From assembly GCA_903844685.1 (NCBI GenBank), contig CAIMUM010000063.1:1-62201 (forward strand): a stretch of DNA of 62,201 nucleotides, read 5' to 3'. How positions within the stretch are numbered: the stretch's first letter is position 1; each line of letters opens with the position of its first letter. Shown one piece after another: positions 16,174 to 31,362 of the stretch. The notes beneath the pieces were generated by a model. That model saw only the letters and a program-made list of their open reading frames with translations. It searched no databases and was not told the DNA's origin. The position numbers were made by a program, and so were the translations under genes. This DNA is from an uncultured Dehalococcoidia bacterium. GTDB lineage: Bacteria > Chloroflexota > Dehalococcoidia > GIF9 > UBA5629.

Positions 16174-16842
16174 TTATATCCGGTGATCTTCGCGGATTAT
16201 GACGCGCGGACCGCCGCTCAGGCTGGCGCTCCATTGCTTGGGAGGCTCGATCTTTTCCAGCCTCTCCAGTTGCCCGATGTTTTTCAACCTCTGGTATATC
16301 AGTTGCCAGGCGCAGGGGCGGTCGGGCCTGACCTCGCAACGGTCTTCCCGTGAACCTCCGCAGGGGCCATTCAATAAATGCTTGGCGCAACGCGTGACCG
16401 GGCAGATGCCGCCATACTCGTGCAGCACGCAGGATCCGCACTGGGAACACTTCTCAGTCCAGACGCCCCGTTCTTCAAGTATGCCGAGGAATTTTGTGTT
16501 CAGTCCGGCATAGACCGGCTTCTTGAGGAAACGCTCGGCAATGGCCTGGACACCCGCACCACACCCCAGCGACAGCACCACGTCAACTTTCTCGATAGCC
16601 TCGATAGCCTGCTCGATAAACACGTTGTCGCACTGCCGCTCGATGGTAAGCTCGCTGACCTCGTAACCCAACCCCCTGGCCTTTGATGCTATGCGCAGGG
16701 CCGAAGAGATGATGCTCACCTCACGCTCACCTCCGGCCAGGCAAACGGTCACACAGGTACCACAACCCAGCACCAGTATCTTAGAGTCATTGGGAAGCAT
16801 ATCAAGGAGCTCGGGGATGCTTTTTCTCTCTGCTACTATCAT
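16174..16842 (-). CDS. metV: MetV (methylene-THF reductase C-terminal-domain-like, Cys-rich small subunit)
   Basis: Carries LGCGTCVTVCLAGGE and a CSQCGSCVL..GICPVTRCAKHLLNGPCGG signature typical of MetV/MTHFR_C. Its ATGA start overlaps the upstream mvhD stop. Confidence 0.8.
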   Translation of the reverse strand: MIVAERKSIPELLDMLPNDSKILVLGCGTCVTVCLAGGEREVSIISSALRIASKARGLGYEVSELTIERQCDNVFIEQAIEAIEKVDVVLSLGCGAGVQAIAERFLKKPVYAGLNTKFLGILEERGVWTEKCSQCGSCVLHEYGGICPVTRCAKHLLNGPCGGSREDRCEVRPDRPCAWQLIYQRLKNIGQLERLEKIEPPKQWSASLSGGPRVIIREDHRI

Positions 16843-17288
16843 GGTTTTATCTCCTGTTGAACCCGTGTTTTCGCCCGGTTGAGCGGGCTGGGTCCGAGCC
16901 TCTGCACGGTTTCAGCCATCTCGCGCACATGCTCGGTGAATAAACGCGCCATGGCGGCGCTGACGTTGACCATCTTAAGGCGGTCTGCTTCTAACCCGCT
17001 TTCAGCCAGCAGCTTGCGGGCATAGTTCACACGGCGTTTGGCAATGAGGTTGCCCTCTTTGAAATGGCAGCTTCCTTCCTCGCAGCCGGCAACCAGGACA
17101 CCGTCGGCACCGTTCTCGAAGGCCCTGAGATAATACTCGACTTCCAGCCTGCCGGTGCAGGGTGTACGGATTATCCTCACGTTGGAAGGGTACTGCAGCC
17201 GCATCGAACCGGCCAGGTCGGCCGCCGCGTATGCGCAGTAGATACAACAGAAAGCTACAATGGTGGTTTCTTTATCAGCTGATTTCAT
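16839..17288 (-). CDS. mvhD: MvhD/FlpD-like [2Fe-2S] electron-transfer protein
   Basis: Reads IVAFCCIYCAYAAADLAG..LQYPSNVRIIRTPCTGR..GADGVLVAGCEEGSCHF. It overlaps hdrA by 4 nt. Confidence 0.85.
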   Translation of the reverse strand: MKSADKETTIVAFCCIYCAYAAADLAGSMRLQYPSNVRIIRTPCTGRLEVEYYLRAFENGADGVLVAGCEEGSCHFKEGNLIAKRRVNYARKLLAESGLEADRLKMVNVSAAMARLFTEHVREMAETVQRLGPSPLNRAKTRVQQEIKP

Positions 17289-20200
17289 AACACACCGCTT
17301 TTCTCCGGCGCAACGGCCGGCTGGCTTTCTTCTTTTCCGCTTCTGAATAATTCATCCAGCATATCCTTGAACTGCCTTGATTCGAAATGGTTCAACTGTA
17401 TGGCACAGGCCGGGCATTCTGCCGCGCAGATGCCGCAGCCCATGCACTTGGCAGCGATAATCTCCGCCTTATGGTCGGCATTAACCGTCGGGGCGCCGTA
17501 CGGGCATACCTTGGTACAGGTCATGCAGGAGATGCATTTCTGCTGGTCTACCTGCGAAACCTGTGCCCCGGCCTCCAGGTAAGCTTTGGAGAGCACGGTC
17601 GAAGCACGTGAGGCCGCCGCGCGCGCCTGCGAGATATTTTCATCCATGTGCTTGGGGGAATGCGCCAGCCCGCAGAGGAAAATCCCCTCGGTGGCGAATT
17701 CCACCGGGCGCAGCTTGAGGTGAGCCTCGACAAAAAAACCGTCCGCATTGAGAGGCACTTTCAGCATATCTGCAACGCGCCGGTTATCCCCGGCCGCATC
17801 GACACCGGTACTTAGAACGACACAATCTGTCTCGATCTCGACCGGCTCAGGGAAATCGGGGCTCTTGAGGCTGACAACCAGTCCATTATCCTGTGAGACC
17901 AGCGGCGGGGCATCGGGCTCATAACGTATAAAAATAACCCCTGCTTCACGTGCCTGCTTGTAATATTTTTCACGGAAGCCGTAGGTCCTGATATCGCGGT
18001 AAAGCACGTAGACACTGGCAGACGGGTCCAGTTTCTTTATCTTCAGTGCGTTCTTGACCGCCATGGAGCAGCAGATACGGCTGCAGTAAGGTCTCTCATC
18101 ATTGCGTGAACCGACGCATTGTATCATCACCACATTCCTGCGGCCGGTTGCAAAATCGCCTTTGTGCAGACGCTGCTCCAGTTCAAGCTGTGTGATGACC
18201 CCTTCGTCTTTACCACGCAAGTATTCCCTGGTCGCCGCGGGGGCGGCCCCGGTGGCCACGATTATGGCGCCGCAGGACACTTCGCTGTCCGTGCCGTCCT
18301 GGAAAAGAGAAACCTTGAATTGTCCAATGAAGCCGGCCACATTGGTGACATCTGCCCCGAGATGAAGGACGATGTTCGGATGGTTTTCAACCTCCTTCAC
18401 CAACCCGGCCACAAACGTGGAAACGTCCTCATGCTCGAGGGTATACCTGAGGGTAAGGGCGTTGCCTCCCAGCCTGTCCGATTTCTCCACCAGGTGCACC
18501 TTGAAACCCTGCCCTGCCAGCGCCAGCGCCGCAGTCATGCCGCTGATACCACCACCGATGACGAGACCCGTCTGGTCGACGGCAAACGAGGTCCCCGTGA
18601 GCGGGGATAGCAGCCTAGCCCGCGCGACGGACATCCTCATAAGTTCTGTCGCCTTCTCCGTGGCCTTTTCAGGCTCGGCAGAGTGAACCCATGAGCACTG
18701 GTCCCGGATATTAGCCAGCTCGAACAGGTAGGGGTTCAGCCCGGCCTCGCGCAGCGTGTCACGGAATATGGGCTCATGGGTACGCGGCGTACAGGATGCG
18801 ACCACGATGCGGTTCAGGCGGTGCTTATGTATCATATCCCTGATATTATTGAGATTGGAATCGGCGCAGGTGTACATGGTGTGCGTGGCAAAGACCACGT
18901 TGGGCTGCTGGGCAGCTATCTCCGACACGCGTTCTACGTCAACCACCGAGGCGATGTTCTTGCCGCAGTGGCAGACGAATACGCCTATCCTGGCCTGCTC
19001 GTCAGTCACATCGTGCTCGTCCGGGTAGACCCTTTTGCTTATCAGTGAGTTGCGCGCCTCGGCCAGCAGTTCCATGGACATCGAGGCGGCCGCGCTGGCC
19101 TGTGTCACGGTTTCGGGAATATCCTTGGGCTCCTGGAAGGCGCCCGCCACGAATACACCGGGTCTCGATGTCGATACAGGATAAAGCCGGTCGGTGGCAC
19201 AGAAGCCATACTCATCCAGGCTGATACCCAAACGGCCGGCGGCTTCTCTTGCCGGCTTCCCTGCCTCCATGCCTACGGACAGCACCACCACGTCGAAATC
19301 GCGCTCTTCCATAACCCCGGCGCCGCTGTAGAATTGCAGGCGCAGGTCCTTACTGCCGGGCACCTGCAGGACGCGTGACGGCATGCTCCTGATATAATTT
19401 ATGTTCCCGCTGCTTTTAGCCCTCTCGTAATACTGGTCAAAATCTTTTCCGTGGGCCCGGATATCCATATAGAAAATGGAGGCCTCCAGCCCGGGCTCGT
19501 GATCCGAGGCCACCAGCGCCTGCTTGGTTGAAACCATGCAGCATACCGATGAGCAATACTCGTTGCCGCAACTGGCATCGCGCGACCCCACACACTGTAT
19601 CCAGGCGATGCGCTTTGCCTCCTTTCCGTCGGAGCGGCGAATAACATGTCCCTCGAAAGGACCGGACGCCGAGAGCATCCGCTCGAATTGCACGCTGGTC
19701 AGGACGTTGGCATAGCGGCCGAAGCCGAACTCTCCCTTCTTCTCAGCAGGGAACTCTTCGAACCCGGGGGCAAGTATGACCGAACCTATCTCTAACTTGA
19801 CCTCACGCTGTCCCATGTAATGGTCAATGGCGTTCTGTTCGCAGGCCTTAACGCACTCCTGGCATTCAGAACACAGGGCACAGTTCAGGCAGCGCTCAGA
19901 TTCAGCCAGGGCGGCTTCTTCACTCAGCCCTCCCTCGGTCTCGCTGAAAGTCCCCTGCCGCCGGCTTAGCGGAAGGTATGCCGGCACGGCGCGCGGTCTT
20001 TTCTCTGCACCGGAGATACCGGGAAGAAGTTCCTCGGAAAGTGGTTTGACCGTATCTTCAAAGCGGGAAGCACGCATATCCTCATTCCTGAGATAGCGGT
20101 CGATGGATTCAGCGGCCCGCTTGCCGGCGCCTACAGCCTGTATGATCGAAGCCGGCCCGGATACACTGTCGCCGCCTGCGAAAATGCCTTTTAGCGATGT

Positions 20201-21775
20201 TTCAAGCGTGGCAGGGTCTACTTTGAAGCATCCACGCTCTGTCTCAACCCCGGCGCTGCTGATGAATTGCTTATCCAGCGACTGTCCGATGGCTATTATC
20301 ACCCGGTCTGCCTGCACCGTTGTCAGTGTTTTCTCATCATAAGCCGGGCTGAAACGCCCCTCACTATCAAATACGCTTATACAGCGTTTTAGCTCAATCC
20401 CCGTGGCCTCACCGTTGCCCAGTATGCGGCGCGGTCCCCAACCATTGCTGATCTTGATGCCTTCTTCAAGTGTCTCCGCTATCTCCTCCGGCAGGGCCGG
20501 CATCTCCTGCCTCTGCTCAAGGGAGACCATCTCGACGCTCCCGGCGCCCAGCCTCAGCGCGGTGCGCGCCACATCCACTGCTACATTGCCGCCGCCTATG
20601 ACGACAACTTTTCTTCCGACGGCAGGTAAATTATTCCTGTCACCCGCCTGCCTGAGGAACTCGACGCCATAGTCGATGTTAGATTTATCCTCGCCCTCAA
20701 TACCGAGCCTGCGGCTGACCTGCACGCCCACCCCGATGAAGACCGCATCGTTATCCTCCCATATTCTCGCAAAAGAGATATCTTCCCCTATCCTGCAACT
20801 GTATTTGAATGCGATACCCTTGCGGCGAATGAGCTCAATTTCATAATCAAGTATTTTCTTGGGCAGCCTGTATTCCGGTATGCCCCAGCGCAGCATCCCG
20901 CCCGCCGCGGGCGCCGCCTCGTACACGGTCACCGCATATCCGCGGTCGGCAAGGTCGGCGGCCGCCGTCAGGCCGGCCGGGCCGGCGCCGATTATCCCGA
21001 CTCTCTTCGCGCCGGCCGGAGGTGTTTTTTCTTCCGGCAGGGAGATCCGGCCTGATTCTACCAACTCCATCTCTTTATCCGACGCAAACCGTTTGAGCAG
21101 CCTGATGGCGACGGGGTCGTCCAATTTTCCGCGTGTGCAGACCGCTTCGCAGGGGTGGTTGCAGGCTCGCCCGCATATGGCGGAAAGAGGGTTCCTCTCC
21201 CTTATCAGGTTCACTGCCTTTACGTACTCTTTCTTCTTGATAAGCTGTATATAGCCCTGGACATTAATATTGGCCGGGCAGGTGACCTTGCAGGGCGCGT
21301 GCCCGTTCTTCAAGATATTGAATAGGTTGGGGGTAGCCTGCGCGTAATGCTTGGCGATGGCCTTGCGTGTGCCCAGTTCGCGGTCGAAGTGGTTGGGGAT
21401 ATTCACCGGGCAGGCATCGGTACATTGTGCGCAAGCGGTGCACTTGTCCTCGTCGACGTAACTCGGGTAGCACCGGATGGTGGCCGTGAAGTTGCCGGCC
21501 TCTCCCTGGAGGTCCACCAGTTCAGAAAGAGTGAGCATCTCAATATTGAGGTTGCGCGCGCATTCCACCAGCTTGGGCGATACGATGCAGGTAGCGCAAT
21601 CCCCGGTGGGAAATGTCTTATCCAGGTGCGACATCATGCCGCCGATAGCGGCTGAACGTTCGACCAGGTACACCCTGAAACCGGAGTTGGCAAGGTCGAG
21701 AGCGGCCTGTATGCCGGCGATCCCGCCACCCTGCACCAGAACTGCGCCTGTCTTCTTCTTTTTATCAGCAGTCAT
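17285..21775 (-). CDS. hdrA: 1496-aa fusion: HdrA module split by a GltD/NfnB-like FAD/NAD(P)H module, a Cys-rich thioredoxin-like domain, then a second complete HdrA module with a C-terminal 2x[4Fe-4S] ferredoxin
   Basis: The start is set at ATG 21775 (MTADKKKKTGAVLVQGGGIAGI); the track start at 21898 would overlap hdrB. HdrA signatures occur twice: IQCVGSRDASCGNEYCSSVCC (aa 727-746) and IQCVGSRNDERPYCSRICC (aa 1219-1236). The GltD-like insert spans aa ~155-565 (nt ~20081-21313): CPANINVQGYI..NPLSAICGRACNHPCEAVC, VGIIGAGPAGLTAA, VVVIGGGNVAVD, GIFAGGD. Confidence 0.85.
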   Translation of the reverse strand: MTADKKKKTGAVLVQGGGIAGIQAALDLANSGFRVYLVERSAAIGGMMSHLDKTFPTGDCATCIVSPKLVECARNLNIEMLTLSELVDLQGEAGNFTATIRCYPSYVDEDKCTACAQCTDACPVNIPNHFDRELGTRKAIAKHYAQATPNLFNILKNGHAPCKVTCPANINVQGYIQLIKKKEYVKAVNLIRERNPLSAICGRACNHPCEAVCTRGKLDDPVAIRLLKRFASDKEMELVESGRISLPEEKTPPAGAKRVGIIGAGPAGLTAAADLADRGYAVTVYEAAPAAGGMLRWGIPEYRLPKKILDYEIELIRRKGIAFKYSCRIGEDISFARIWEDNDAVFIGVGVQVSRRLGIEGEDKSNIDYGVEFLRQAGDRNNLPAVGRKVVVIGGGNVAVDVARTALRLGAGSVEMVSLEQRQEMPALPEEIAETLEEGIKISNGWGPRRILGNGEATGIELKRCISVFDSEGRFSPAYDEKTLTTVQADRVIIAIGQSLDKQFISSAGVETERGCFKVDPATLETSLKGIFAGGDSVSGPASIIQAVGAGKRAAESIDRYLRNEDMRASRFEDTVKPLSEELLPGISGAEKRPRAVPAYLPLSRRQGTFSETEGGLSEEAALAESERCLNCALCSECQECVKACEQNAIDHYMGQREVKLEIGSVILAPGFEEFPAEKKGEFGFGRYANVLTSVQFERMLSASGPFEGHVIRRSDGKEAKRIAWIQCVGSRDASCGNEYCSSVCCMVSTKQALVASDHEPGLEASIFYMDIRAHGKDFDQYYERAKSSGNINYIRSMPSRVLQVPGSKDLRLQFYSGAGVMEERDFDVVVLSVGMEAGKPAREAAGRLGISLDEYGFCATDRLYPVSTSRPGVFVAGAFQEPKDIPETVTQASAAASMSMELLAEARNSLISKRVYPDEHDVTDEQARIGVFVCHCGKNIASVVDVERVSEIAAQQPNVVFATHTMYTCADSNLNNIRDMIHKHRLNRIVVASCTPRTHEPIFRDTLREAGLNPYLFELANIRDQCSWVHSAEPEKATEKATELMRMSVARARLLSPLTGTSFAVDQTGLVIGGGISGMTAALALAGQGFKVHLVEKSDRLGGNALTLRYTLEHEDVSTFVAGLVKEVENHPNIVLHLGADVTNVAGFIGQFKVSLFQDGTDSEVSCGAIIVATGAAPAATREYLRGKDEGVITQLELEQRLHKGDFATGRRNVVMIQCVGSRNDERPYCSRICCSMAVKNALKIKKLDPSASVYVLYRDIRTYGFREKYYKQAREAGVIFIRYEPDAPPLVSQDNGLVVSLKSPDFPEPVEIETDCVVLSTGVDAAGDNRRVADMLKVPLNADGFFVEAHLKLRPVEFATEGIFLCGLAHSPKHMDENISQARAAASRASTVLSKAYLEAGAQVSQVDQQKCISCMTCTKVCPYGAPTVNADHKAEIIAAKCMGCGICAAECPACAIQLNHFESRQFKDMLDELFRSGKEESQPAVAPEKSGVL

Positions 21776-21807: not shown

Positions 21808-22680
21808 TCAGGCTTTCAAGGCCAGGGACTGTAAAACCCCGGCGGGGGAGACCATCAGCCGGTTGAGGCCGAGCTCTTTGGGCGGGATGCCGAGGCACAA
21901 ACCAAGCAATTGCGTTATGTATACGATAGGCATCTCATAGCGCCTGCCCGTTTGCTTTTGCATATCTTTCTGGCGCAGGTCAAGGCTGGCCTGGCACATG
22001 GGGCAGGCCACCGTAATACACCCGGCGCCCGACGCCACAGCCATATCAAGGACTGAACCCGAAAGCTTCACAACCACTTCAGTCCTGGTCAGGTTAAGGC
22101 CTCCTCCGCAACAGTCAACTTTGCCGGGCCAGTCGACGCTCTGCCCACCCATGGCATCTACCAGGCGGTCGAGGATAGTAGGGTTCTCTGCATCGTCAAA
22201 ATGAGTTACATCGTGCGGACGCACCAGCAGGCACCCGTAATAAGCTGCTACCTTCAACCCTCCGAGAGTGTGTGTAAAGCTCTTACGCAGTTTTTCAATA
22301 CCCACGTCTTCGAGCAGTACTTCGACAAGATGCCTCACGGCAACTGAGCCGTCATATGGTTGCCCGACCACGTCGGCTACTCTGGCTCGCATGGCCGGTG
22401 AGGAGGACACCTCGTGGTTTGTCACCTTCATCCGGTTGTAACAAGCCGCGCAGGTGACCACCGTATCAAGCCCCATCTGCTTAGCCAGCAGCATATTGGC
22501 AGCCGGCAGTGAAGCGGCAAGTATCCGGTCGGTCTGGTGTGCGGCAGTTGCCCCACAGCAGGACCATCCCTCAATTTCCACCAGCTCAATACCCAGCTTA
22601 CATGCTACAGCTATGGCCGACTCGTGCATATCACGGGCAGTGGAATGTGACGAGCACCCCGGATAATATGCGTATTTCAT
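21808..22680 (-). CDS. hdrB: Heterodisulfide reductase subunit B-like protein (two CCG domains)
   Basis: Reads YYPGCSSH..WSCCGA and YYGCLLVRP..VDCCGGG. It overlaps hdrC by 4 nt. Confidence 0.85.
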   Translation of the reverse strand: MKYAYYPGCSSHSTARDMHESAIAVACKLGIELVEIEGWSCCGATAAHQTDRILAASLPAANMLLAKQMGLDTVVTCAACYNRMKVTNHEVSSSPAMRARVADVVGQPYDGSVAVRHLVEVLLEDVGIEKLRKSFTHTLGGLKVAAYYGCLLVRPHDVTHFDDAENPTILDRLVDAMGGQSVDWPGKVDCCGGGLNLTRTEVVVKLSGSVLDMAVASGAGCITVACPMCQASLDLRQKDMQKQTGRRYEMPIVYITQLLGLCLGIPPKELGLNRLMVSPAGVLQSLALKA

Positions 22681-23246
22681 TGCTTTTTTCCTTTACCCGG
22701 CATGGCCTTTTCAAAAATGCGCCTTACGGCCTTTTTGTCGGCGCCGGACGGCGGGAGAATGGCCATTTTCCCCTTCTTCAACATGGTGGGGAATTTTTCC
22801 GTATCGCTCATCAACGAGCCGCTCCCGAGCTTGTAGCCGGCGATCATGGACAGGTCGTAGGAGCGTCCGAAAACCCTGACATTGGCCAGGAACATGCGGT
22901 TAAACAGTGGCATGTTGCCTTCAGGCACTTTGGATCCCCTGGCCAGGGCCAAACTGCGCAGGGCATCGATAACCGCAGCGAAATTTATCTGCATCGGGCA
23001 GCGGCCGTAGCAGGTTTCGCAGGAAAGGCACATCCACACCAGGCCGTTCTCCAGGAGCTCGTCCCCAGCCCCCAGGTGCAACCTCCTGATAATCTCCGAC
23101 GGCGCCGACTTCGCCGGTCCGGCCACCGGACAGCCTGCGGAGCATTTCCTGCACTGGTAACAGGCGTCTAAGCTGACGCCGGACATCTCTTCTACAATCG
23201 CCTTGAGGCCAGTCCCCTTTGCTACTTTGTTAATTCTTATCGTCAT
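22677..23246 (-). CDS. hdrC: Heterodisulfide reductase subunit C-like protein (2x[4Fe-4S])
   Basis: Reads CYQCRKCSAGCP and CLSCETCYGRCP. Confidence 0.85.
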   Translation of the reverse strand: MTIRINKVAKGTGLKAIVEEMSGVSLDACYQCRKCSAGCPVAGPAKSAPSEIIRRLHLGAGDELLENGLVWMCLSCETCYGRCPMQINFAAVIDALRSLALARGSKVPEGNMPLFNRMFLANVRVFGRSYDLSMIAGYKLGSGSLMSDTEKFPTMLKKGKMAILPPSGADKKAVRRIFEKAMPGKGKKQ

Positions 23247-23266: not shown

Positions 23267-25924
23267 TTATTCACCGGTCGATACGGTCAACAGGTCGGTC
23301 TCCGTTACCACGGCCCCCTCGATTTTCTTGCCCAGCGCCGCTATTCTAACCGGAGCAACTTTACGGTAAACCTCGGATGGGTTAAGCCTCTTGCCATCCA
23401 CGGTCAGCAGTTCTTCAACCTTTATACCGAAGAGCCGCTCATTTTCCTCCAGGTACGGAAGTATCAGTTCCCAGTCCTCATCGGCCATGCGGTAGAAACC
23501 GCAGCCGTTCAACTGCTGCCAGACGACCTGCTGGCGCGGGTCCCGTATGTAAATAGCTCCTCCCGAAGCCAGCGAGAAAAGGTTGCTGCCCGGGTATGGT
23601 TCCTTCAAGGCAATCAGATTCCCTTCATCGTCAAATGTCACGCCATTCAGTATGACAAACCCGCCGCCGTTAAGCACATCACCCGCCATAAATGACTCAC
23701 CGAGGAAATCAAGGCAGGTGCCGTTAATCACGACCCTTGGCCTGCCCACCGAGTTGATAAGCGGCCGTCCGGCGGCATTGCCCATAACGTAAATCGAGCC
23801 GCCCTTAGCCCCGTACATAAAGGTTTGTCCAACATCGCCATGAATAACCAGTTTGCCGCGCTTGATGATCTGGCCGACCTGGTCCTGGGCGTTGCCATGT
23901 ACGGTAATGGTCATCCCATCGATACCTGAAGCCAGGTAATCCCCGGAGCTGTCGTAAACTTCTATAGTCACACCATCGGAGTCAGGCCCGAGACCACAGC
24001 CGATGAACCGCTGCCCGATGCAATTAAAACTGATGAAGCGCCGCCATCCCTTCAGATAGGCATCCATCAGTAAGGTGGCATCGCAGCCTTCACCTTCCGG
24101 ATCAAAGCCCATGGCATCTATCACCAGGGTGGTTTCATTGTTTTGCGGCGGCCTCAGCAGTCCCCGTGTCCCGTGGTCTATCAGGCGGTACCCACCCTCG
24201 GCAGGACCATTCCCATCAAATTTAGTGAGACCGCTGAATACCGCATTTAAAGCGCTGCGTACCAGGTAGAGAATGTGGTTGCGTTTCTTCATACCCACGG
24301 GATACCTGCGGTCGTTGAGCAGTGTAAGGGCTTCGATAGCCGCTGAACTGCCCTTAGGTTCCTTTGCAAGCTCAATTAAGTAAGCTAAGGCCGCCCGGAT
24401 CTCTGCGAAAGACCATCTCCGTATTCCTCCGGATAAGTACTCAAAAATGTCAGCCGCGCTCCTTTTTTCAAAGCTCTGTTTGAGGCCGTCCCTGATATGG
24501 CCTGCAACTTCCGCTACGGCAGCCGTAAAATCACAGGCCTCGCCACCGGTTGGCATGGGAACGGGAGTGCCAAACTTGTCGCTACAGGATATACGCAGCC
24601 TGCCGGACTTATCAGGTTCCAGGTCAAAGATAAAAGCGCCGCCGTCGGTATGGCTGCCGCCCCTGGCGTTCCAGTACCGGTCCGCGACCGGGCATATCCG
24701 GCTGTCATCGGCGTGCAGGCTCAGCAGTGTGGCGTCTATGGCCTGTTTCTCGGAGGCTATCAACCCAACCTGCACTTCCCCATCGCAAAAAGCGAATACC
24801 TGGGGCCGAAGCATAGCGGTATCCGTGATACCCATAAGCTGGAAGGCGCCCTTCTGCGGCAGTGAGCGTGCGATAATAAAGAACCAGGGACCGTCGGGCG
24901 AACCATGTATATGGGCGGCCTGTACCGCCCGATACAGCGCCTGTTTGTCCTTCGGCAGACGGTCGAAATCCAGCTCCGACGTAGGCGCCAGCGCCTCGAT
25001 AATATATTCCAATGGATAATGGTAGGTTCGCTCCAGCAGGTCAAACATTAAAATGGAAACTTCGGTGTCTGTGAGGAATTGCGGATAGATATGCCTCTCG
25101 GCCAGGTATTCGCACACCGAGTGGTAATTGGCAAAGTCACCGTTGTGCACCAGCGCGGCGTTGATGCCGCCGAAGGGATGGGCGCCTCCCGGGTGCCATA
25201 CGCGGCCCTTGGTCGGGAAGCGCTGGTGGGCTATCCATACATGGGCGCATAGCTCTTCGATCTTGTAGTACTTTACGATAGCCTCCGCGTATCCTACCAC
25301 CTTGAGGATCATGATGTTTTTGCCTTCGGACATTACGAAGGCCTTCTGTTCGCCAAGTGAAGCATAGTATTCCTGGTTAAGCCGTATGCTGTTCTGGTTG
25401 ACGAACTCGGCCCTGGCCTCATCTCTCGTCAGGCCGGTGAAGCCGTTAGCCTTTACAAACGAATTAAGGACATCACCTTTCACGCGCACAAAATAGCGGT
25501 AAACATCGGGAGGTTTGGCTTCCAGGCCATCAACCGTTGTCCAGTCATCCAAGGTTTCAAGTTTCTGCGTTGTGGCTACATTAAAATTGGGTTTGATATA
25601 TTTATCCTCAAGCTGAGGCCTTATCCCCGTGTCAAGGAATGCCACGTGGATCATGTAGCACTTATCCAGCACTTCGCGGCTTACGCCAAGCTGTTCCGGT
25701 ATGAAGCCAAGCGCGGCAATGCCGCCACCCTTGCCATTGCCGCGGTTATGCATCTGCCTTGACGGCTCGTAAATGTGCCTGGCCGCTACCGGCTCCGAGC
25801 AGCACAAACCGACGACACCACAGCCGCCCTCTTCCTCAACCTTCCTCTCAGTTGCAGCCGGCTGCAACTCACCTGCCAGTCTTTTCCTGGAAAGAAGCAG
25901 TTGTCCTATCGTTTCGCGGTTCAT
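23267..25924 (-). CDS. Glutamate-synthase-like fusion: class-II (Ntn) glutamine amidotransferase domain plus C-terminal GXGXG domain
   Basis: The candidate Ntn nucleophile is Cys35 in GGCGVVGL, followed by HNRGNGKGGGIA, HQRFPTKG and LVHNGDFANY. The C-terminal GXGXG beta-helix reads VHGNAQDQVGQ..VIHGDVGQTFMYGAKGGSIYVMGNAAGRP. Its ATGA start overlaps the upstream gene. Confidence 0.8.
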   Translation of the reverse strand: MNRETIGQLLLSRKRLAGELQPAATERKVEEEGGCGVVGLCCSEPVAARHIYEPSRQMHNRGNGKGGGIAALGFIPEQLGVSREVLDKCYMIHVAFLDTGIRPQLEDKYIKPNFNVATTQKLETLDDWTTVDGLEAKPPDVYRYFVRVKGDVLNSFVKANGFTGLTRDEARAEFVNQNSIRLNQEYYASLGEQKAFVMSEGKNIMILKVVGYAEAIVKYYKIEELCAHVWIAHQRFPTKGRVWHPGGAHPFGGINAALVHNGDFANYHSVCEYLAERHIYPQFLTDTEVSILMFDLLERTYHYPLEYIIEALAPTSELDFDRLPKDKQALYRAVQAAHIHGSPDGPWFFIIARSLPQKGAFQLMGITDTAMLRPQVFAFCDGEVQVGLIASEKQAIDATLLSLHADDSRICPVADRYWNARGGSHTDGGAFIFDLEPDKSGRLRISCSDKFGTPVPMPTGGEACDFTAAVAEVAGHIRDGLKQSFEKRSAADIFEYLSGGIRRWSFAEIRAALAYLIELAKEPKGSSAAIEALTLLNDRRYPVGMKKRNHILYLVRSALNAVFSGLTKFDGNGPAEGGYRLIDHGTRGLLRPPQNNETTLVIDAMGFDPEGEGCDATLLMDAYLKGWRRFISFNCIGQRFIGCGLGPDSDGVTIEVYDSSGDYLASGIDGMTITVHGNAQDQVGQIIKRGKLVIHGDVGQTFMYGAKGGSIYVMGNAAGRPLINSVGRPRVVINGTCLDFLGESFMAGDVLNGGGFVILNGVTFDDEGNLIALKEPYPGSNLFSLASGGAIYIRDPRQQVVWQQLNGCGFYRMADEDWELILPYLEENERLFGIKVEELLTVDGKRLNPSEVYRKVAPVRIAALGKKIEGAVVTETDLLTVSTGE

Positions 25925-27501
25925 CTGGCCTGCTCCGTATCGTTGCTGTAATCAAGATGCATGAGGAGGTCGGTGCGGCCCCGCAACTCGCTGACCCTGC
26001 GCATACCGAACCTGCGCAGTATCTCTACCAGTTCGATACGCCAGGCGTTATAAAGGTTGATTATCCGTTGTGAGCCCCATTCGACCGTGTACTGCCCCTG
26101 CAGTTCCGCGTCCGTGGTAGCTATGCCGCGCGGGCAGCCCCGTCCGCTTTCACAGCGTGCGCAGCGCAGACATCCCAAAGCTACCAGTTCACCGGTCCCG
26201 ACAACTACGCCGTCCGCGCCGAGGGCGATGGCCTTGGCTATATCATGAGCATTCCTCAACCCGCCGCTGGCTATCAGTGTTATCCTGTCGCGCACACCTT
26301 CACGGGTCAAGAAATCGTGCACTTTGATAATGGCATATTCAATGGGCATAGCGATGTTTTTCTTGGCTATATCCGGTGCGGCGCCGGTGCCGCCGTAACC
26401 GCCGTCCAGGTGAACGATATGCGCTCCGGCTGAATAGCTGCCCACGGCAACCATATCAACATCCGACGGGGTCGAAACCTTGGCTGAGACCAGGGCATGC
26501 CGGTTGATATGCTTTATCCAGTCCATATGTTTCTTATGGTCTTCGATAGAATAAACGCTGTGAAAGGGGAAAGGTGAAAATAGCGAGATGCCGGTAACCG
26601 TTTCCCTCATCCTGGCCACGGATGGTGTGACCTTATCCGCCAGCAGGTGGCCTCCCAAACCCGGTTTGGCGCCCTGCGCGTATTTGAATTCCACGATCCG
26701 CACGCGCTGGATGGTCTCCTCCCGCACACCAAATAACCCCGTGGCAACCTGTGTGATAGTGTGGTCGTCGTAAGGCCTCAGACGCTCCATGTACCCACCT
26801 TCCCCTGTACAGGTAAAGGTGTTGAAGGCCACGGCAGCGCTTGCCTTGGACAGCTGCGTAACGTTGCTCACCGACCCGTACGACATGCCGCCTCCATACC
26901 AGGGCACATCGATTTTGATCTGCGGCCTCCCGTCGTTTCGACGGTTAAGCTCCAGGCTAGTGTCGATATCGTCCGGGCTCAATTCAACCGGCGGCCTGGC
27001 AGGAAATTTAAACCTGATACGGTCAAATCCTCCGCCGGAATTGCCGCATTCATATTCATACCCATACTCGGGCGGAGGAGGAGCGCCCGTCTCGGCCATC
27101 TTCCATGTAGCCAGTATCAGGTCAGGCGTCCAGCGGTAATCGCCCAGCACCTTCATCATGGGATTTTCCACCATGCGCAGCGCCTTATTCGGGCATAAAT
27201 CTACACAATAATGGCCGGTGTCCTTGCAGGCCGGGCCGATACACACATTCTGGTGAGGGGCAGCGAAGTATTTATAGCCCGGCTTGAGAACGTGCACACC
27301 CTGAGGGCATATCTCGGCGCATTTGCCGCATAGCTTGCAATCGGCGCTGCGCCTGATAATATATTTCGCGATCTCATTGCGGTAGCGCGGCGGGGCCGGT
27401 TTAATTACGCGTTGAACCTCCGCCTGCGGCACCATAGTCTCGAGTATACTATCCGGAAGACCTTCTTTAATTATTTTTTCTGGAACCAAAGAGCTTGCCA
27501 A
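25921..27501 (-). CDS. Glutamate synthase FMN/synthase-domain subunit with an N-terminal 2x[4Fe-4S] ferredoxin domain (archaeal split-GltB type)
   Basis: Ferredoxin motifs: CKLCGKCAEICP and CVDLCPNKA. Synthase motifs: KYAQGAKPGLGGHL, LDGGYGGTGAAP, ASGGLRN..GADGV, CLRCARCESGRGCP. The start is uncertain; TTG 27501 lies 6 nt after GAGGAGG, while the track start is TTG 27525. Confidence 0.8.
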   Translation of the reverse strand: MASSLVPEKIIKEGLPDSILETMVPQAEVQRVIKPAPPRYRNEIAKYIIRRSADCKLCGKCAEICPQGVHVLKPGYKYFAAPHQNVCIGPACKDTGHYCVDLCPNKALRMVENPMMKVLGDYRWTPDLILATWKMAETGAPPPPEYGYEYECGNSGGGFDRIRFKFPARPPVELSPDDIDTSLELNRRNDGRPQIKIDVPWYGGGMSYGSVSNVTQLSKASAAVAFNTFTCTGEGGYMERLRPYDDHTITQVATGLFGVREETIQRVRIVEFKYAQGAKPGLGGHLLADKVTPSVARMRETVTGISLFSPFPFHSVYSIEDHKKHMDWIKHINRHALVSAKVSTPSDVDMVAVGSYSAGAHIVHLDGGYGGTGAAPDIAKKNIAMPIEYAIIKVHDFLTREGVRDRITLIASGGLRNAHDIAKAIALGADGVVVGTGELVALGCLRCARCESGRGCPRGIATTDAELQGQYTVEWGSQRIINLYNAWRIELVEILRRFGMRRVSELRGRTDLLMHLDYSNDTEQAR

Positions 27502-28876
27502 AGGTCGCCTCCTCAAGGTCTTCAAAGAATAGGGCCCGGCCTACTTCACCACGCAGGCGGCGGACCTCGCGTATGCCCATGGCTCCCATGACCTCGATCA
27601 ACTGGTCGTGCCATGCAGCAATCAGATTTGTCATGCGCCCGACACCGTACTTGATATCTATCTCCCCGATCAGCGCCGGGCATGACTGGCCGTCATTACA
27701 ATCACGGCAAAGCGTGCACTCCAGGGCTATTAATAATGGCAGGTTGATAGTTACCAGGTCGGCGCCGCAGAGGATCTGCTTGGCCATATGCTCGGCCAGG
27801 GCTATGCCACCGCCTGCCATCAGAGTTACCTCGTTCCTTAACCCGCTTTCCACCAGCGAGTTATGCACACTGCGCACCATGTCCTTGATAAAACGGGGGT
27901 TTTTTTCTCCGATCTCGTTACCGTTATCATCGGCTACCAGGTGCAAAACCTCGACAAACGGTTGGCGGGCATATTCGACTGCGCGTTCAATCCCTCCGGA
28001 ATCCATTTCCACCCTGACCGCAACCACTATGCCGGGGTTTATTTGCTTCAGTTCACGTACGCGCCGTTCCGCGTTTCCGTCGTCGCTTATCTCTACCAAT
28101 CTCATCCCGGTAAGCAATTCACGGCCGGGCAGGGGTGCGGAGGCATCGAGATAAATCGCCAGGTTAGGCAGGTATTGATCAAGGTCATTGCCCGCTAACT
28201 GCCAGTCTTTAGAATCGATAATGGCGATGACGCCTGTCTGCGCCGCCACTATTTTAATAACAGGCAGCAGGTTGGGAAGCCGGTAGCCGCGGGGCAGCAT
28301 ATCGATAATCATGGGCATCGGTATATCCACCAGCGGCGGCAGACCGCCGGCCGGGTTGCCTGCATCGAAGTGGAGCAGGGCGGGTTTTCTGCCGATGTCC
28401 ACAGCCGTGCTGATATACTCGCGCCCATGTATCCCGTCACGGGTAGGGCGCACGATCTCCGACATATCGGTCCACATCGAATCGAAGCCCAGGCCGGAAA
28501 ATCGCCCCCGGTATCCCGCGCCAGAAACCGGTATCTTGGCTGATTCCGCCTGCGCCCAGGTCGTTTCAATTATCTGGGGTGTCCAATATGTATTGCCAAG
28601 CCGCTCATACACAGGGTTGGCCGACAGTGCCAGCAGCCCCTTGGTACATTGCTGCACGCAGGAGAAGCAGCCCATGCACTGGAAGAACACGGCATCCATC
28701 TCACGAAGCCCGCGGATGTACGACATCTCTTCCCTGTAGCGGTCGAAAACGCAGGCTTTCTTAACGCAGTTATGGCAGTTGGCGCAATCTTCGCGCCAGT
28801 CCACCACGCCGATTTTGCCGATACGCGGCCGGCGCGGGGGGATGGGTTGAGTTTTGATGTGATATTTATCCGGCAT
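27467..28876 (-). CDS. Degenerate paralogue of the GltS FMN-domain subunit, with an N-terminal Cys-rich ferredoxin-like region
   Basis: Cys-rich region: CANCHNCVKKAC and CMGCFSCVQQC. The C-terminal part, AGGGIALAEHMAKQILCGADLV..CTLCRDCNDGQSCP, parallels the neighbouring subunit. The QGAKPG.GG substrate/FMN loop is not recognisable. Confidence 0.65.
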   Translation of the reverse strand: MPDKYHIKTQPIPPRRPRIGKIGVVDWREDCANCHNCVKKACVFDRYREEMSYIRGLREMDAVFFQCMGCFSCVQQCTKGLLALSANPVYERLGNTYWTPQIIETTWAQAESAKIPVSGAGYRGRFSGLGFDSMWTDMSEIVRPTRDGIHGREYISTAVDIGRKPALLHFDAGNPAGGLPPLVDIPMPMIIDMLPRGYRLPNLLPVIKIVAAQTGVIAIIDSKDWQLAGNDLDQYLPNLAIYLDASAPLPGRELLTGMRLVEISDDGNAERRVRELKQINPGIVVAVRVEMDSGGIERAVEYARQPFVEVLHLVADDNGNEIGEKNPRFIKDMVRSVHNSLVESGLRNEVTLMAGGGIALAEHMAKQILCGADLVTINLPLLIALECTLCRDCNDGQSCPALIGEIDIKYGVGRMTNLIAAWHDQLIEVMGAMGIREVRRLRGEVGRALFFEDLEEATFGKLFGSRKNN

Positions 28877-28891
28877 AGGTATTTACCTTAT

Positions 28892-29794
28892 TCAAATCGC
28901 CGCTGAAATAAGCGCGGGTACAACAGTCTCGTTGCCTCCCGAAAATATGTGTATACCGCGCAGGCCCGGCAAACCCTTAAGCTGCTTGATTATCCCGGCG
29001 CAGATAGCCATGCCCTCCTTGAGCTGCGCCTCTTCATTTCCGGCAGATTCCAGGCGGGAGATCACCTCATCCGGTATATTGAAATCCGTGAAGGTTCCAT
29101 TCAATTTCTTCGCTTCAGCCGCTCCGGTCAGTGGCAACACGCCCGCCAGAATGGCAACTTTTTCGGTGAGGCCTTCGCCGCGGGCCGTCTCAAGCCACCG
29201 TTTGAATTCTTCAATATCAAATACGGCCTGCGTTTGAATGAAGGATGCCCCGGCCTTCACTTTCTTCTTAAGGCGGATAATATTAAGTTCCAGCGGCTTA
29301 AGGTAAGGATTGGCAGCAGCCCCCGCCAGCATAGAAAAAGCCCCCTCGATCTTAGTTCCGTCCAGCAGCAAACCCTCGTCGCACATTTTTTTTACCGTCG
29401 CGATGAGCTGGATTGAATCTATATCAAAGACGTTGGCGGATTCAGGGCAACCTACCAGTGCCTGATGATAGCCGGAAAGGCACAGCACGTTTTTTATACC
29501 CAGGGAGGCCGCTCCCAGCAGGTCGGACTGCAGTGCAATGCGGTTCCTGTCCCGCGTAACAACCTGGTAAACTGGTTCAATTCCGGCGCGGCCCAATATC
29601 ACCGATGCGGCAAGGCTGGACATGGCCACACCGTAATGGTTATCAGCCACATTCACCGCAACAGGGCCATTTTTAAATATACGGGCGCAGTCTTCAACTA
29701 TTTGCGTACCCGTGCCGGTCCGCGGCAGGTATTCCGCCGTGACAATAAACTCTTTACCGCCTATCTTATTGGCCAGTGCGCTATCAGGTTTCAT
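28892..29794 (-). CDS. metF: Methylenetetrahydrofolate reductase (acetogen-type MetF)
   Basis: 300 aa. Reads FIVTAEYLP..VNVADN..VYQVVTRDRNRIALQSDLLGAASLGIKNVLCLSGYH, with a typical MTHFR TIM barrel. Confidence 0.85.
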   Translation of the reverse strand: MKPDSALANKIGGKEFIVTAEYLPRTGTGTQIVEDCARIFKNGPVAVNVADNHYGVAMSSLAASVILGRAGIEPVYQVVTRDRNRIALQSDLLGAASLGIKNVLCLSGYHQALVGCPESANVFDIDSIQLIATVKKMCDEGLLLDGTKIEGAFSMLAGAAANPYLKPLELNIIRLKKKVKAGASFIQTQAVFDIEEFKRWLETARGEGLTEKVAILAGVLPLTGAAEAKKLNGTFTDFNIPDEVISRLESAGNEEAQLKEGMAICAGIIKQLKGLPGLRGIHIFSGGNETVVPALISAAI

Positions 29795-29831: not shown

Positions 29832-30260
29832 TTACTCTTTATCCAGCTCTAATTCATCGCCCGCATATGCCTTGCGGGGTGAGGCTTTTATCCTCCTGCG
29901 GAAATCCTCCACCTCTTTCTTGATTTGATCGATGCCGCCATCACCCATCTGCATCATGACCATCCTCCCTTTACCCAATCCAATCTCTTCAAGCAGTGCG
30001 TCCACTGCTGACACCCTCTTCTCAGCCCGAAGGTTACCTTCCAGGAATTGGCATTCACCTTTTTTACAGGTAATCACCGCCACCCCATCCGCACCGCTTT
30101 CAAAGGCCTTGGTTAAGTAGAGGATGTCGATCTTGCCGGAACACGGCAGCGGTATAATCCTCAGTTCATCCCCGTTGCCGTTATTACCCGGCGCCAGCTC
30201 GAGCGGATCAAAGCTGGTTGAACAGCACAAGAGATTGATCTTAACTTTACTATTATTCAC
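29832..30260 (-). CDS. Second, divergent MvhD/FlpD-like protein
   Basis: Reads INLLCC....RIIPLPCSGKIDILYLTKAFESGADGVAVITCKKGECQF. It aligns with the 16839..17288 product, but the first Cys motif is CCSTS rather than CCIYC. Confidence 0.7.
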   Translation of the reverse strand: MNNSKVKINLLCCSTSFDPLELAPGNNGNGDELRIIPLPCSGKIDILYLTKAFESGADGVAVITCKKGECQFLEGNLRAEKRVSAVDALLEEIGLGKGRMVMMQMGDGGIDQIKKEVEDFRRRIKASPRKAYAGDELELDKE

Positions 30261-30282: not shown

Positions 30283-31296
30283 TTAAACCGTTTTTATTTT
30301 ATAAAGTTCCTCGAAGGGGACGAAATTTTTGTATTCAATCAAGGCGCTCATGGCGTGCGATTCCACTTCTATCCCGGCCTCCTGGACGGCGGCCAACGGG
30401 TTCAGGCCGCCGATTACTACCATGCCTGCCCGCCCCGGCTCAACCGGCATCTCGCAGACAGGCTCACTAACACCGCCGATAATAAAGATGCCGTTCATAC
30501 CGGCTTTATTAAGCTTCAAGGAGATATCCCCTGCCTTCGGACGGCAAATTGCCGGTATCTCGTGGAAATTTGCCAGCAGGCTGCCCTGGCCGTTTTTTAC
30601 AACCTGCCCAACCGAAGTCATTTTGGCCTTTATAAAGACCTCGGCCGGGTCAAGGGAGCATCCGGTGTAATGTATTAAATCCACAAATCTCCAGGGTTGG
30701 TGGCCCCACATCTGCAGCAACCCGCCAAACCTGGCATTCACAGGAACGCAGGCCCTCAGCAACGCACCGTTCACTACTATGCTGCATACCGTGACCAGTG
30801 CTGCGGTGTCCTCCGGGACCATAATATCGCCGATTTGTTCACCGCTGCGGGCCTCCATAACCAGGCGGCTTGCACATAGACGCGCCGAAAATACGGGCGC
30901 CATAATCTGCAGCGCCTTCTTGAAATCCCGCCTCCGTATAAACGATACATTCACCGGCACCAGCCCCGCCCGTTTATCAGCATCGAATGTGGTCAGGACC
31001 GCTAACTGCTCTATCCTTGTAATGGAGAAGCCCACTTTTTCCTTGACCATTCCCTGCTTGAGCTCCTTGAGTCCGAGTTGTGTGATCTGCCTGCCATCGC
31101 GCCGGCCTGCCAGGTGCGTCAACCCGTTATCATCGGTAACCTTCAGGTGATATCGCACCGCCCGCTGACCCAGGTCAACACCCAGATCACGAAGCTTGCG
31201 CGCAATCACTATCGAACCCAAAGGCTGCGGCGAGTTTGCCAGCACCTTGAGGATGCTAAAGGTCTTTTTCTCCACGTTCTGCGTAGTGAATGTCAT
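30283..31296 (-). CDS. nrpR: NrpR-family regulator (winged HTH plus two DUF128 domains), homologue of the archaeal nitrogen repressor
   Basis: Reads FSILKVLANSPQPLGSIVIARKLRDLGVDLGQRAVRYHLKVTDDNGLT, followed by two NrpR-type domains. I moved the start to ATG 31296 because a consensus promoter (31334-31362) lies inside the longer track ORF. Confidence 0.75.
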   Translation of the reverse strand: MTFTTQNVEKKTFSILKVLANSPQPLGSIVIARKLRDLGVDLGQRAVRYHLKVTDDNGLTHLAGRRDGRQITQLGLKELKQGMVKEKVGFSITRIEQLAVLTTFDADKRAGLVPVNVSFIRRRDFKKALQIMAPVFSARLCASRLVMEARSGEQIGDIMVPEDTAALVTVCSIVVNGALLRACVPVNARFGGLLQMWGHQPWRFVDLIHYTGCSLDPAEVFIKAKMTSVGQVVKNGQGSLLANFHEIPAICRPKAGDISLKLNKAGMNGIFIIGGVSEPVCEMPVEPGRAGMVVIGGLNPLAAVQEAGIEVESHAMSALIEYKNFVPFEELYKIKTV

Positions 31297-31333
31297 ATTA
31301 CTATTATAACGGCTTATGGAAGCCAGTTGCCGT

Positions 31334-31362
31334 ATTATAGCAACAGAATGAGGCGCTGTCAA
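31334..31362 (-). promoter_or_regulatory. Perfect consensus sigma70 promoter in front of nrpR and the operon
   Basis: Minus strand: TTGACA (31362..31357), a 17-nt spacer, then TATAAT (31339..31334). Confidence 0.7.

Follow-up and report, generated by a model that had tools for sequence, protein, structure and literature searches.

Glutamate synthase (GOGAT; GltS for short) is the main gate for nitrogen into biomass. Its textbook builds are GltBD, the ferredoxin-dependent enzyme (ferredoxin-GltS) and the eukaryotic fusion; for the archaeal split form, to our knowledge, nothing but sequences is available. We here describe three adjacent genes of an uncultured Dehalococcoidia bacterium (Chloroflexota; assembly GCA_903844685.1, contig CAIMUM010000063.1). 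They probably encode a glutamine-dependent glutamate synthase, with the functions of the alpha subunit distributed over three chains and one chain, the twin, being non-catalytic; the activity itself we infer. The whole stretch of DNA analysed, 62,201 nucleotides (nt) long, is called the window.

The three open reading frames (ORFs) follow one another head to tail, all on the minus strand. In a first-pass annotation of this DNA they had been read as GltB-derived modules in a non-canonical arrangement, and ORFs, Pfam domains and motifs bear this out at the very same positions (Table 1). The motifs cited there, YAQGAKPGLGGHL, CLRCARCESGRGCP and CTLCRDCNDGQSCP, are all present in the window proteins. 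The trio is not a chance product, since each of the three proteins has more than 7,600 database relatives. The closest matches are metagenome-assembled genomes of Chloroflexota/Dehalococcoidia, and the databases annotate such proteins as "glutamate synthase" or "glutamate synthase-related protein".

The three proteins

Gene 1 unites the two ends of a GltB chain. A Pfam profile search on the window proteins detects its GXGXG domain (PF01493, 5.7e-14), and the AlphaFold (AF2) monomer model, with a predicted local distance difference test score (pLDDT) of 84 and a predicted template modelling score of 0.87, was compared with solved proteins. The whole chain superimposes on GltS alpha subunits with Z 25-27 and a root-mean-square deviation of 3.1-4.2 over 575-590 residues, extending to GltS residue ~1460-1500. 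This superposition covers both the glutaminase and the beta-helix, which are the two terminal domains of GltB. The amidotransferase domain also matches the glutaminase domains of PurF and GlmS (Z 20-21), and the beta-helix was aligned to FwdC and FhcC (Z 15.4-15.5) as well as to the GltS C-terminal domain. A direct fusion of amidotransferase and GXGXG domain, as first annotated, is only partly correct: they do share one chain, but a folded helical region of some 140 residues (~456-598) lies between them. The model has 4-5 helices at ~475-565 (pLDDT 85-97) and the beta-helix at ~600-860. Neither the classical split subunits nor the aligned parts of GltB have this linker; the classical glutamine amidotransferase (GATase) genes stop near the equivalent of residue 423 of gene 1, and the classical GXGXG genes begin near 594-626. 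The length of 885 residues, with GATase and GXGXG in one chain, is kept in more than 100 relatives.

The candidate nucleophile is Cys35 in the motif EEGGC35GVVGL. When 38 full-length relatives of diverse phyla are aligned (57-89% identical, but for two at 43-44%), the residues E32-G33-G34-C35-G36-V37 are invariant, and so are R61 of NRGNG, H260-N261-G262-D263 and T285-D286-T287-E288. Cys1, Arg, Asn-Gly and Asp are the signatures of PurF, GlmS and GltS-type glutaminases; on the strength of what is known of these enzymes, we take R61, N261-G262 and D286 to be the helper residues of the glutaminase. In the model the first strand of the N-terminal nucleophile (Ntn) sandwich begins exactly at residue 35, and every structural alignment begins there as well. 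Residue 35 is placed on residue 1 of 1ofe, 1ea0, 2vdc, 1ecb and 1xff, that is, on the first residue of Synechocystis and Azospirillum GltS, of E. coli PurF and of the GlmS glutaminase domain. It also matches residue 22 of B. subtilis GltA, where the chain starts in 7mfm.

The first-pass annotation had proposed this very cysteine and had left the choice between a 34-residue propeptide and an inactive amidotransferase. The latter is unlikely, because canonical GltB and classical GATases carry propeptides of 19-26 residues: 20 and 26 residues precede CG(V/T)GF in the canonical GltB of two Dehalococcoidia genomes, and ~19-20 are found in the stand-alone classical GATase subunits of this class. The 34-residue propeptide is ordinary and no peculiarity. 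It is presumably removed to expose Cys35.

Two distant relatives of gene 1, P0260 (770 residues, GSGGGLAG) and P0307 (653 residues, VDGGLVG), have Gly instead of the nucleophile Cys, and their HQRFPTKG block is altered too. They are possibly glutaminase-dead variants or poor gene models.

Gene 2 encodes the subunit that should bind flavin mononucleotide (FMN). Pfam assigns Glu_synthase (PF01645, 1.1e-89) and Fer4 families to it, and its match in the A. brasilense GltS alpha subunit (2vdc_A) spans residues 857-1170, with E 6e-54. A joint alignment puts gene 2 and the twin beside five Dehalococcoidia sequences: the synthase domains of two canonical GltB and three subunits of the classical split type. 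In this alignment, gene 2 retains GGMSYGSVS, TGEGG, TQVATGLFGV, EFKYAQGAKPGLGGHL (QGAKPGLGG), the ARMR arginine, SPFPFHSVYSIED, GGYGGTGAAP, SGGLRNAHD..ALGAD and the cluster cysteines. The intact synthase loop QGAKPGLGGHL and the cysteine cluster motif noticed on first reading are indeed there and align to GltB. The GltB-type [3Fe-4S] motif Cx5Cx4C is found neither in gene 2 nor in the twin; both have CxxCxxCx5CP. Gene 2 keeps the three GltB ligand positions and adds one Cys, and the classical split subunits have four Cys as well. Because of this one extra Cys, a [4Fe-4S] cluster is predicted in gene 2.

The overlap between genes 3 and 2 had first been given as 35-59 nt, depending on the start chosen. 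Eighteen homologous loci were compared to settle the start codon. After the stop codon of the twin, 31 nt are kept as protein in the frame of gene 2 (ILPENTLKT-L/R-VPQ), with synonymous changes at third positions. At the position of TTG 27501 most of these loci likewise have TTG, and L027 and L028 have ATG; in the window, GGAGG (27512-27508) and a 6-nt spacer stand before the TTG, inside the coding sequence of gene 3. Since the sequence past the twin stop is conserved as protein in the gene 2 frame, the 35-nt overlap is real, and gene 2 extends from 25921 to 27501. The 59-nt version, with TTG 27525 at the head of the longest open frame (25921-27525), found no support. A start at ATG 27435, which would leave a 31-nt gap and no overlap, was rejected: the 66 nt upstream are conserved as protein, and the ATG of the window is Leu, Arg or Phe in the 18 loci. 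More distant relatives have an ATGA overlap or a short gap between the twin and FMN genes. In the window, GGAGG and the TTG start fall within the last 15 codons of gene 3, so that the C-terminal LEEATFG motif of the twin doubles as the translation signals of the next gene. The ATG of gene 1, in turn, overlaps the stop codon of gene 2 (ATGA).

The twin is 24% identical to gene 2 and collinear with it over the full length. Pfam detects Glu_synthase (9e-14) across profile positions 172-368 only, besides Fer4 families. The first-pass annotation had credited it with the C-terminal half of the barrel and a Cys cluster; the cluster is there, but instead of half a barrel the AF2 model shows a complete one with pLDDT >90. 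Its nearest neighbour is the GltS synthase domain (Z 22, ~295 residues, A. brasilense residues 782-1155). The barrel is complete, yet catalytically stripped. In the joint alignment MSxGxxS, GEGG, KQVAxGxFGV, QGAKPGxGG, SPxPxHxxYSIED and GGTGA are lost or deleted; a ~40-residue deletion takes out both KQVAxGxFGV and the QGAKPG loop. The early suggestion of a non-catalytic paralogue, based on the missing QGAKPG loop, can thus be extended to all synthase motifs; the twin does not retain the catalytic residues. What it still has are GGGIALAEH..CGAD, the C-terminal four-Cys motif and both ferredoxin motifs, which add up to twelve cluster cysteines. Among 34 homologues C387, C390 and C399 are invariant and C393 is found in most; E362, H363 and K366 are invariant too. 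The twin is most likely a non-catalytic iron-sulfur partner of the FMN subunit.

The best-conserved block of the twin, residues 116-157, is poorly ordered in the monomer model (pLDDT <50 at 117-121 and 139-151) and is a candidate subunit interface. It is homologous to the classical lead-in WDHLxLNASQVTNPSIDP and closer to it than the matching part of gene 2, which suggests complementary loss after duplication. Identities of 66-96% are found among the 120 closest relatives of the twin, and purifying selection is clear from the sequences. The twin nevertheless diverges faster than gene 2: identities for twin versus gene 2 at the same loci are, for example, 66% vs 78%, 49% vs 65% and 43% vs 61%, and the branches of the twin are longer in a quick maximum-likelihood tree. 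There, twins, operon-type FMN subunits, classical and canonical forms make up one branch each (support 99-100), the order among the four groups not being settled; the sub-trees of twin and FMN subunit are congruent.

Distribution and relation to known glutamate synthases

A pattern scan with one genome per species found relatives of gene 1 in at least 589 species of about ten phyla, and the trio recurs there. Among the phyla are Chloroflexota, Verrucomicrobiota, Planctomycetota, Desulfobacterota, Bacteroidota/Ignavibacteria, Spirochaetota, Acidobacteriota, Myxococcota, Armatimonadota, Latescibacterota and Actinomycetota. Eighty loci were kept, and 62 of them have enough upstream DNA to judge the gene order. 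In 55 of these 62, gene 1 is directly preceded by the twin and FMN genes; L046, with the two slightly further upstream, would make it 56. Five loci are cyclically permuted (L016, L018, L019, L023 and L032); there, the FMN gene presumably comes after the twin, outside the DNA retrieved.

Nature has also fused these genes. Full-length twin followed by FMN subunit is seen in 957 protein clusters of ~960-1070 residues; in P0394, residues 1 to ~470 are the twin and residues 490-981 the FMN subunit at 66% identity, and genome G026 contains a twin-FMN open frame of 1,021 residues. FMN subunit, GATase and GXGXG are joined in one protein in P0350. The giants P0315 (2526 residues) and P0268 (3016 residues) combine GlcD-like FAD_binding_4/FAD-oxidase_C, ferredoxin domains, a Glu_synthase barrel, GATase and GXGXG, i.e., a glutamate synthase core hooked to a different, dehydrogenase-type electron-input module.

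Within the class, the trio and other glutamate synthases complement each other. The genome of the window, 78% complete, has no proteins with a Glu_synthase domain other than the trio; it also has one glutamate dehydrogenase and two glutamine synthetase genes. A census of 61 Dehalococcoidia genomes, which are related and therefore yield a pattern rather than a statistical test, found canonical GltB (~1,500 residues) in ~29, the classical split form in ~15 and the operon type with the trio in 8. None of these 8 carries another GltS type, and the ~44 others with canonical or classical GltS have no trio. Seven of the 8 operon-type genomes are at least 90% complete, one of them 100% in two contigs, so that the trio is the sole glutamate synthase in several high-quality genomes. 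Two GltS types together were met only in G028. The three builds are almost perfectly mutually exclusive in this sample; a further small type of 436-458 residues occurs in G016 and G046, and seven genomes gave no strong hit.

The closest solved relatives are GltBD (A. brasilense 1ea0/2vdc/6s6s; B. subtilis 7mfm) and ferredoxin-GltS (Synechocystis 1ofd/1ofe/1llw); a PDB sequence search returned no solved structure of a split GltS. They have in common with the trio the propeptide-bearing Ntn glutaminase with Cys1, the QGAKPG FMN barrel, the (for the trio, predicted) iron-sulfur cluster beside FMN and the C-terminal GXGXG beta-helix, and in the model glutaminase and beta-helix are placed alike. 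Even a GltD-like NAD(P)H module is near the trio, as a part of HdrA. In contrast to the single 1,500-residue chain of GltB and ferredoxin-GltS, however, the trio consists of three chains. It has N-terminal ferredoxin domains, four Cys instead of three in the cluster motif, an additional dead paralogue and an additional helical linker, and its partners are MvhD, MetFV and Hdr rather than free GltD. It lacks a PF04898 central domain above the threshold; the matches, over the C-termini of the barrels, reach 22.2 and 19.5 bits (cut-off 22.8).

In GltB, the central domain lines the ammonia tunnel and scaffolds the enzyme (PMC8097209). The twin resembles that domain (residues 423-780, PF04898) in being a stripped copy of the synthase barrel in a system that has no other central domain; unlike it, the twin is a complete barrel with three cluster sites and has a gene of its own. 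Structural homology between the two was considered and rejected, as the model aligns to residues 782-1155 and not to 423-780. We would therefore speak of a functional analogy only, not of demonstrated homology: the twin resembles a version of the central-domain idea that was retained independently and has decayed less. As such, it may offer a living counterpart to the step in which, on current views, GltB acquired its degenerate central domain.

The classical archaeal-type split GltS, with separate GltB1 (GATase), ferredoxin-headed GltB2 (FMN) and GltB3 (GXGXG), is also found in Dehalococcoidia (L090, L092, L093). It shares with the trio the ferredoxin-headed FMN subunit, the four-Cys motif, the GGHL loop, the GATase propeptide and an nrpR neighbour. 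Yet identity to the trio is only 30-36%, and its FMN subunits form a separate clade in the quick tree; GATase and GXGXG are separate genes, and twin and MetFV/MvhD/Hdr context are lacking. Also the gene order differs: it is GATase, FMN, GXGXG in the classical form and twin, FMN, GATase-GXGXG in the trio.

MgsABC of Methylorubrum extorquens DM4 likewise consists of GltB1-, GltB3- and GltB2-related subunits and has a one-carbon (C1) link, as has the trio; its subunits are smaller and separate, no twin and no ferredoxin heads are reported, and the genes are clustered with gmaS and mgdABCD (PMC6237917). The operon of the window has no gene resembling glutamine synthetase or sarcosine oxidase, the comparison with Mgs being one by description only.

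Operon and electron supply

The trio is embedded in a tightly packed minus-strand operon of 10 to 11 genes, in which neighbours overlap or lie at most 37 nt apart (Table 1); its electron-transfer genes are of the folate reductase and heterodisulfide reductase (Hdr) kinds. This context of MetFV, MvhD and Hdr is the more important fact about the locus and had not been part of the first-pass annotation, which had considered ordinary stand-alone archaeal-type GltS genes with their own promoter as the alternative. That alternative does not apply: the operon is kept across phyla, and the classical form differs. Full flanks were available for 42 loci. The order mvhD-metF-twin-FMN-gene1-hdrC-hdrB-hdrA-mvhD-metV is found in 27 of them and a cyclic permutation of it in 3. 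In 9 loci (6+2+1) the hdr genes are missing, while metF and/or metV plus mvhD are kept; hdrCB is missing in one locus, only mvhD is kept in another, and in one the trio stands alone. Altogether, at least one met gene is present in 39 and mvhD in 41 of the 42.

Table 1. Genes and features of the glutamate synthase operon in the window
Feature	Position	Strand	Basis
nrpR-type regulator	30283-31362	-	Pfam NRD1_2 7e-76
Perfect TTGACA-17-TATAAT promoter of nrpR	31362-31334	-	
mvhD (first copy)	29832-30260	-	Pfam FlpD 7e-27
metF, acetogen type	28892-29794	-	Pfam MTHFR 4.5e-31
Gene 3 (twin), 469 aa: ferredoxin domain, complete but catalytically stripped FMN-type barrel, C-terminal cluster motif	27467-28876	-	
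Twin ferredoxin domain, C31/34/37/42 and C67/70/73/77	28646-28786	-	8 Cys invariant in 34 homologues
Twin residues 116-157, PVSGAGYRG..GFDSMWTDMSEIVRPTRDGIHGREYIST, best-conserved block	28406-28531	-	mostly invariant columns
Twin C-terminal cluster motif C387xxC390xxC393x5C399P	27680-27718	-	conservation
Gene 3/gene 2 overlap, 35 nt	27467-27501	-	locus comparison
Gene 2, 526 aa from TTG 27501: double-cluster ferredoxin domain, FMN/synthase barrel	25921-27501	-	Pfam, alignments
Gene 2 ferredoxin domain, CxxCxxCxxxCP and Cx4Cx6Cx3CP	27193-27339	-	sequence, Fer4 Pfam
Gene 2 QGAKPG synthase loop	26659-26676	-	identical to QGAKPG of A. brasilense GltS alpha, canonical and classical forms
Gene 2 cluster motif CxxCxxCx5CP, at the GltB [3Fe-4S] site (Cx5Cx4C)	26134-26172	-	alignments
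Gene 1, 885 aa: propeptide, class-II (Ntn) amidotransferase, helical linker, GXGXG beta-helix	23267-25924	-	ORF, Pfam, model
Gene 1 presumed propeptide, residues 1-34, helix 3-20	25823-25924	-	model; cleavage inferred
Cys35 codon, candidate N-terminal nucleophile	25820-25822	-	conservation, structural alignment
Amidotransferase domain, residues 35-~455, motifs NRGNG, HQRFPT, HNGD, TDTE	24560-25822	-	alignment, structure
Helical linker domain, residues ~456-598	24131-24559	-	model
GXGXG beta-helix, residues ~599-864	23333-24130	-	Pfam PF01493, structure
hdrC	22677-23246	-	
hdrB	21808-22680	-	
hdrA-gltD-hdrA, giant HdrA with GltD-like NAD(P)H module	17285-21775	-	
mvhD (second copy)	16839-17288	-	
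metV	16174-16842	-	

The genes around the trio cover all six subunit kinds of the MetFV-HdrABC-MvhD complex of Moorella thermoacetica, the HdrA with a GltD-like insert among them. For the Moorella cluster, reports mention no glutamate synthase genes; the window has a second MvhD and carries the trio between metF and hdrC. The trio is thus an addition to this gene set, not a member of it. A mention of glutamate synthase genes in clusters of the MetFV/Hdr/MvhD type was not found in the searchable literature, nor was a description of the trio or its operon in full-text literature, subscription journals being outside this coverage. The three-gene architecture, the twin and the operon are apparently undescribed.

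Put together, the trio may work as follows. The precursor of gene 1 would lose its 34-residue propeptide, and Cys35, then the N-terminal nucleophile, would hydrolyse glutamine; beta-helix and linker would keep the assembly together. Ammonia would move to gene 2 and add to 2-oxoglutarate before FMN, and the resulting imine would be reduced to glutamate. Gene 3 would be an ancient duplicate of gene 2 that lost substrate and probably flavin binding and kept three iron-sulfur sites. Paired with gene 2, this pseudo-enzyme might be both a scaffold, like the degenerate central domain of GltB, and an electron wire. Electrons from the co-encoded MvhD, MetFV and Hdr would reach FMN through up to six [4Fe-4S] clusters, with NAD(P)H entering via the GltD-like module in the giant HdrA of the operon; in lineages with nothing but the trio, the donor is probably ferredoxin. 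The trio would be the cell's only glutamate synthase, under nitrogen control by NrpR.

A number of observations weigh against this picture of a glutamate synthase with a silent twin. The GATase_6 match of gene 1 has 24.1 bits and stays slightly below the cut-off of 27; positions 1 to ~55 of the Pfam synthase profile are unmatched in gene 2. The Gln of the GltB motif GGQL is replaced by His (GGHL), as in the classical split subunits, and with four instead of three Cys in the cluster motif the redox properties may differ. The flavin site of the twin, with GGGIALAEH..GAD kept and GGTGA lost, makes FMN binding ambiguous by sequence. The complementary GltS distribution rests on related, non-independent genomes and on a window genome that is 78% complete. 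As this genome encodes glutamate dehydrogenase, the cell could perhaps make glutamate without the trio. Nor does a simple housekeeping GOGAT account for MetF and MetV as its constant companions. Finally, no biochemical data on any member of the trio were found in the literature.

For the electron input, there are three main options: an NAD(P)H/Hdr module shared by the operon's proteins, ferredoxin bifurcation driven by GOGAT, and direct coupling to methyl-tetrahydrofolate (methyl-THF). Tentatively, one may go as far as to see in the glutamate synthase reaction one arm of an energy-coupling complex. GOGAT would then be either the exergonic acceptor of an HdrA-based bifurcation, which takes NAD(P)H to glutamate plus reduced ferredoxin, or an electron sink for MetFV, in which methyl-THF, 2-oxoglutarate and Gln yield methylene-THF and two Glu. 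By textbook potentials, the 2-oxoglutarate+NH3/glutamate couple is more positive than methylene/methyl-THF, which would make the direct coupling exergonic. For methylene/methyl-THF -200 mV is given, and the low-potential second acceptor of the Moorella MetFV-HdrABC-MvhD complex is listed as "?" (PMC5861303). That loci devoid of hdrABC still have metF, metV and mvhD next to the trio (6+2+1 of the 42 loci; G011, 100% complete), and that MetF and the synthase are the only redox-active catalytic sites encoded in such loci, would fit; so would the fusion of a GltS core to a GlcD-like input module in P0315 and P0268, and the separate canonical housekeeping MetF and acetyl-CoA synthase beta subunit in the genome. 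Of course, all this is read out of gene content. The trio alone, as in L066 and G045, must be functional without MetFV, Hdr genes may sit elsewhere in the "Hdr-less" genomes, and the anabolic demands for glutamate and C1 units are very unequal, which argues against a strict 1:1 coupling. With equal reserve, the split GltS might be called the missing "other arm" of the MetFV/MvhD/Hdr-type machine, be it in bifurcation or in folate C1 redox, with the twin as the iron-sulfur bridge. The trio in L066 and G045 could just as well speak for an autonomous ferredoxin-dependent glutamate synthase, next to which MetFV, MvhD and Hdr form a separate enzyme that shares operon and regulation. The surface-type double-cluster domains on both gene 2 and gene 3 and the classical split GltS, which has an equal ferredoxin head and lacks such neighbours, point the same way. 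This reading we nonetheless regard as rather improbable: the interleaved order, in which metF and metV flank the set from opposite sides and mvhD occurs twice, is kept in at least 10 phyla, and together with the translational coupling (ATGA, 35-nt overlap) it is hard to explain without one assembly. Moreover, MvhD is not known in any role but that of an adaptor between complexes (Mvh-Hdr).

The role of the twin and the nature of the reaction itself could also be seen differently. A twin that binds flavin or another ligand, as a second redox site or as a regulatory one, e.g., a sensor of 2-oxoglutarate or glutamine, would account for its complete and confidently modelled barrel, for the kept phosphate-binding end GGGIALAEH..CGAD with its invariant E362, H363 and K366, and for the conserved block 116-157, which is new relative to gene 2. 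This is unlikely, since GGTGA and all flavin- or substrate-lining blocks of GltS are gone, the ~40-residue deletion included, and the twin diverges faster than gene 2. Still less credible, in fact hardly so, is a related amide-transfer or flavin reaction on another substrate, with an amine-folate C1 tie via MetF. MgsABC does show that the same domain set can be recruited for a C1-linked reaction other than GOGAT; yet MgsA, MgsB and MgsC, with 300, 225 and 442 residues, come from separate genes without a twin (PMC6237917). A folate enzyme in the operon and two tandem genes resembling glutamine synthetase in the genome would suit this idea, but gmaS or mgd genes are missing from the operon, the motifs for 2-oxoglutarate and FMN are those of GltB, the trio replaces canonical or classical GltS in the genomes, and NrpR is common to the classical form.

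If the trio is a glutamate synthase, it is a fourth and widespread build of this enzyme, represented in at least 589 species and by more than 7,000 protein clusters. Its novel features would be a pseudo-enzyme subunit, a cluster predicted to be [4Fe-4S] where GltB has [3Fe-4S], and a path of up to six clusters to the flavin. The association with MetFV, MvhD and Hdr offers a testable candidate for what Hdr-linked methylene-THF reductases couple to, and bears on a possible recovery of energy by anaerobes from GOGAT, a strongly exergonic step. If the coupling were true, nitrogen assimilation would be wired directly into flavin-based bifurcation, and ferredoxin reduction would be paid for by glutamate synthesis, the exergonic branch. 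In the alternative version its link would be to folate C1 redox, and glutamate synthesis would pull methyl-THF oxidation.

Regulation and further observations

NrpR is known as a regulator of methanogenic archaea. By Pfam assignment, the first gene of the operon belongs to this 2-oxoglutarate-sensing nitrogen regulator family of methanogens, and nitrogen control of the operon is likely. An nrpR gene lies near the trio operon also in L031, L042, L056 and L062. In other Dehalococcoidia, nrpR homologues (48-49% identity) adjoin the classical split GATase/FMN/GXGXG genes (L090:12203-13183, L092:15606-16643), and NrpR control of glutamate synthase thus seems to be general in this class. The exact NrpR operator GGAA-N6-TTCC has five matches in the window, none of them near the operon promoter. 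A strict sigma-54 -24/-12 pattern upstream of the operon was found in only 2 of 61 loci, both from Hdr-less Desulfobacterales. In these, TGGCAT-N5-TTGCA stands 248 nt upstream of mvhD (L054:4640, L067:4169); they are two of four strict sigma-54 matches in 1.39 Mb of fetched loci.

Elsewhere, the genome of the window contains a canonical stand-alone MetF (C186), a weak third MTHFR-like gene beside a phosphoenolpyruvate-mutase-like gene (C103), two tandem glutamine synthetase genes (C41) and the acetyl-CoA synthase beta subunit (C152); formyl-THF synthetase was not found in the 78%-complete assembly. In the Hdr-less operon of genome G011, an ORF of 319 residues without a Pfam match directly follows gene 1 (L094:12848-13807).

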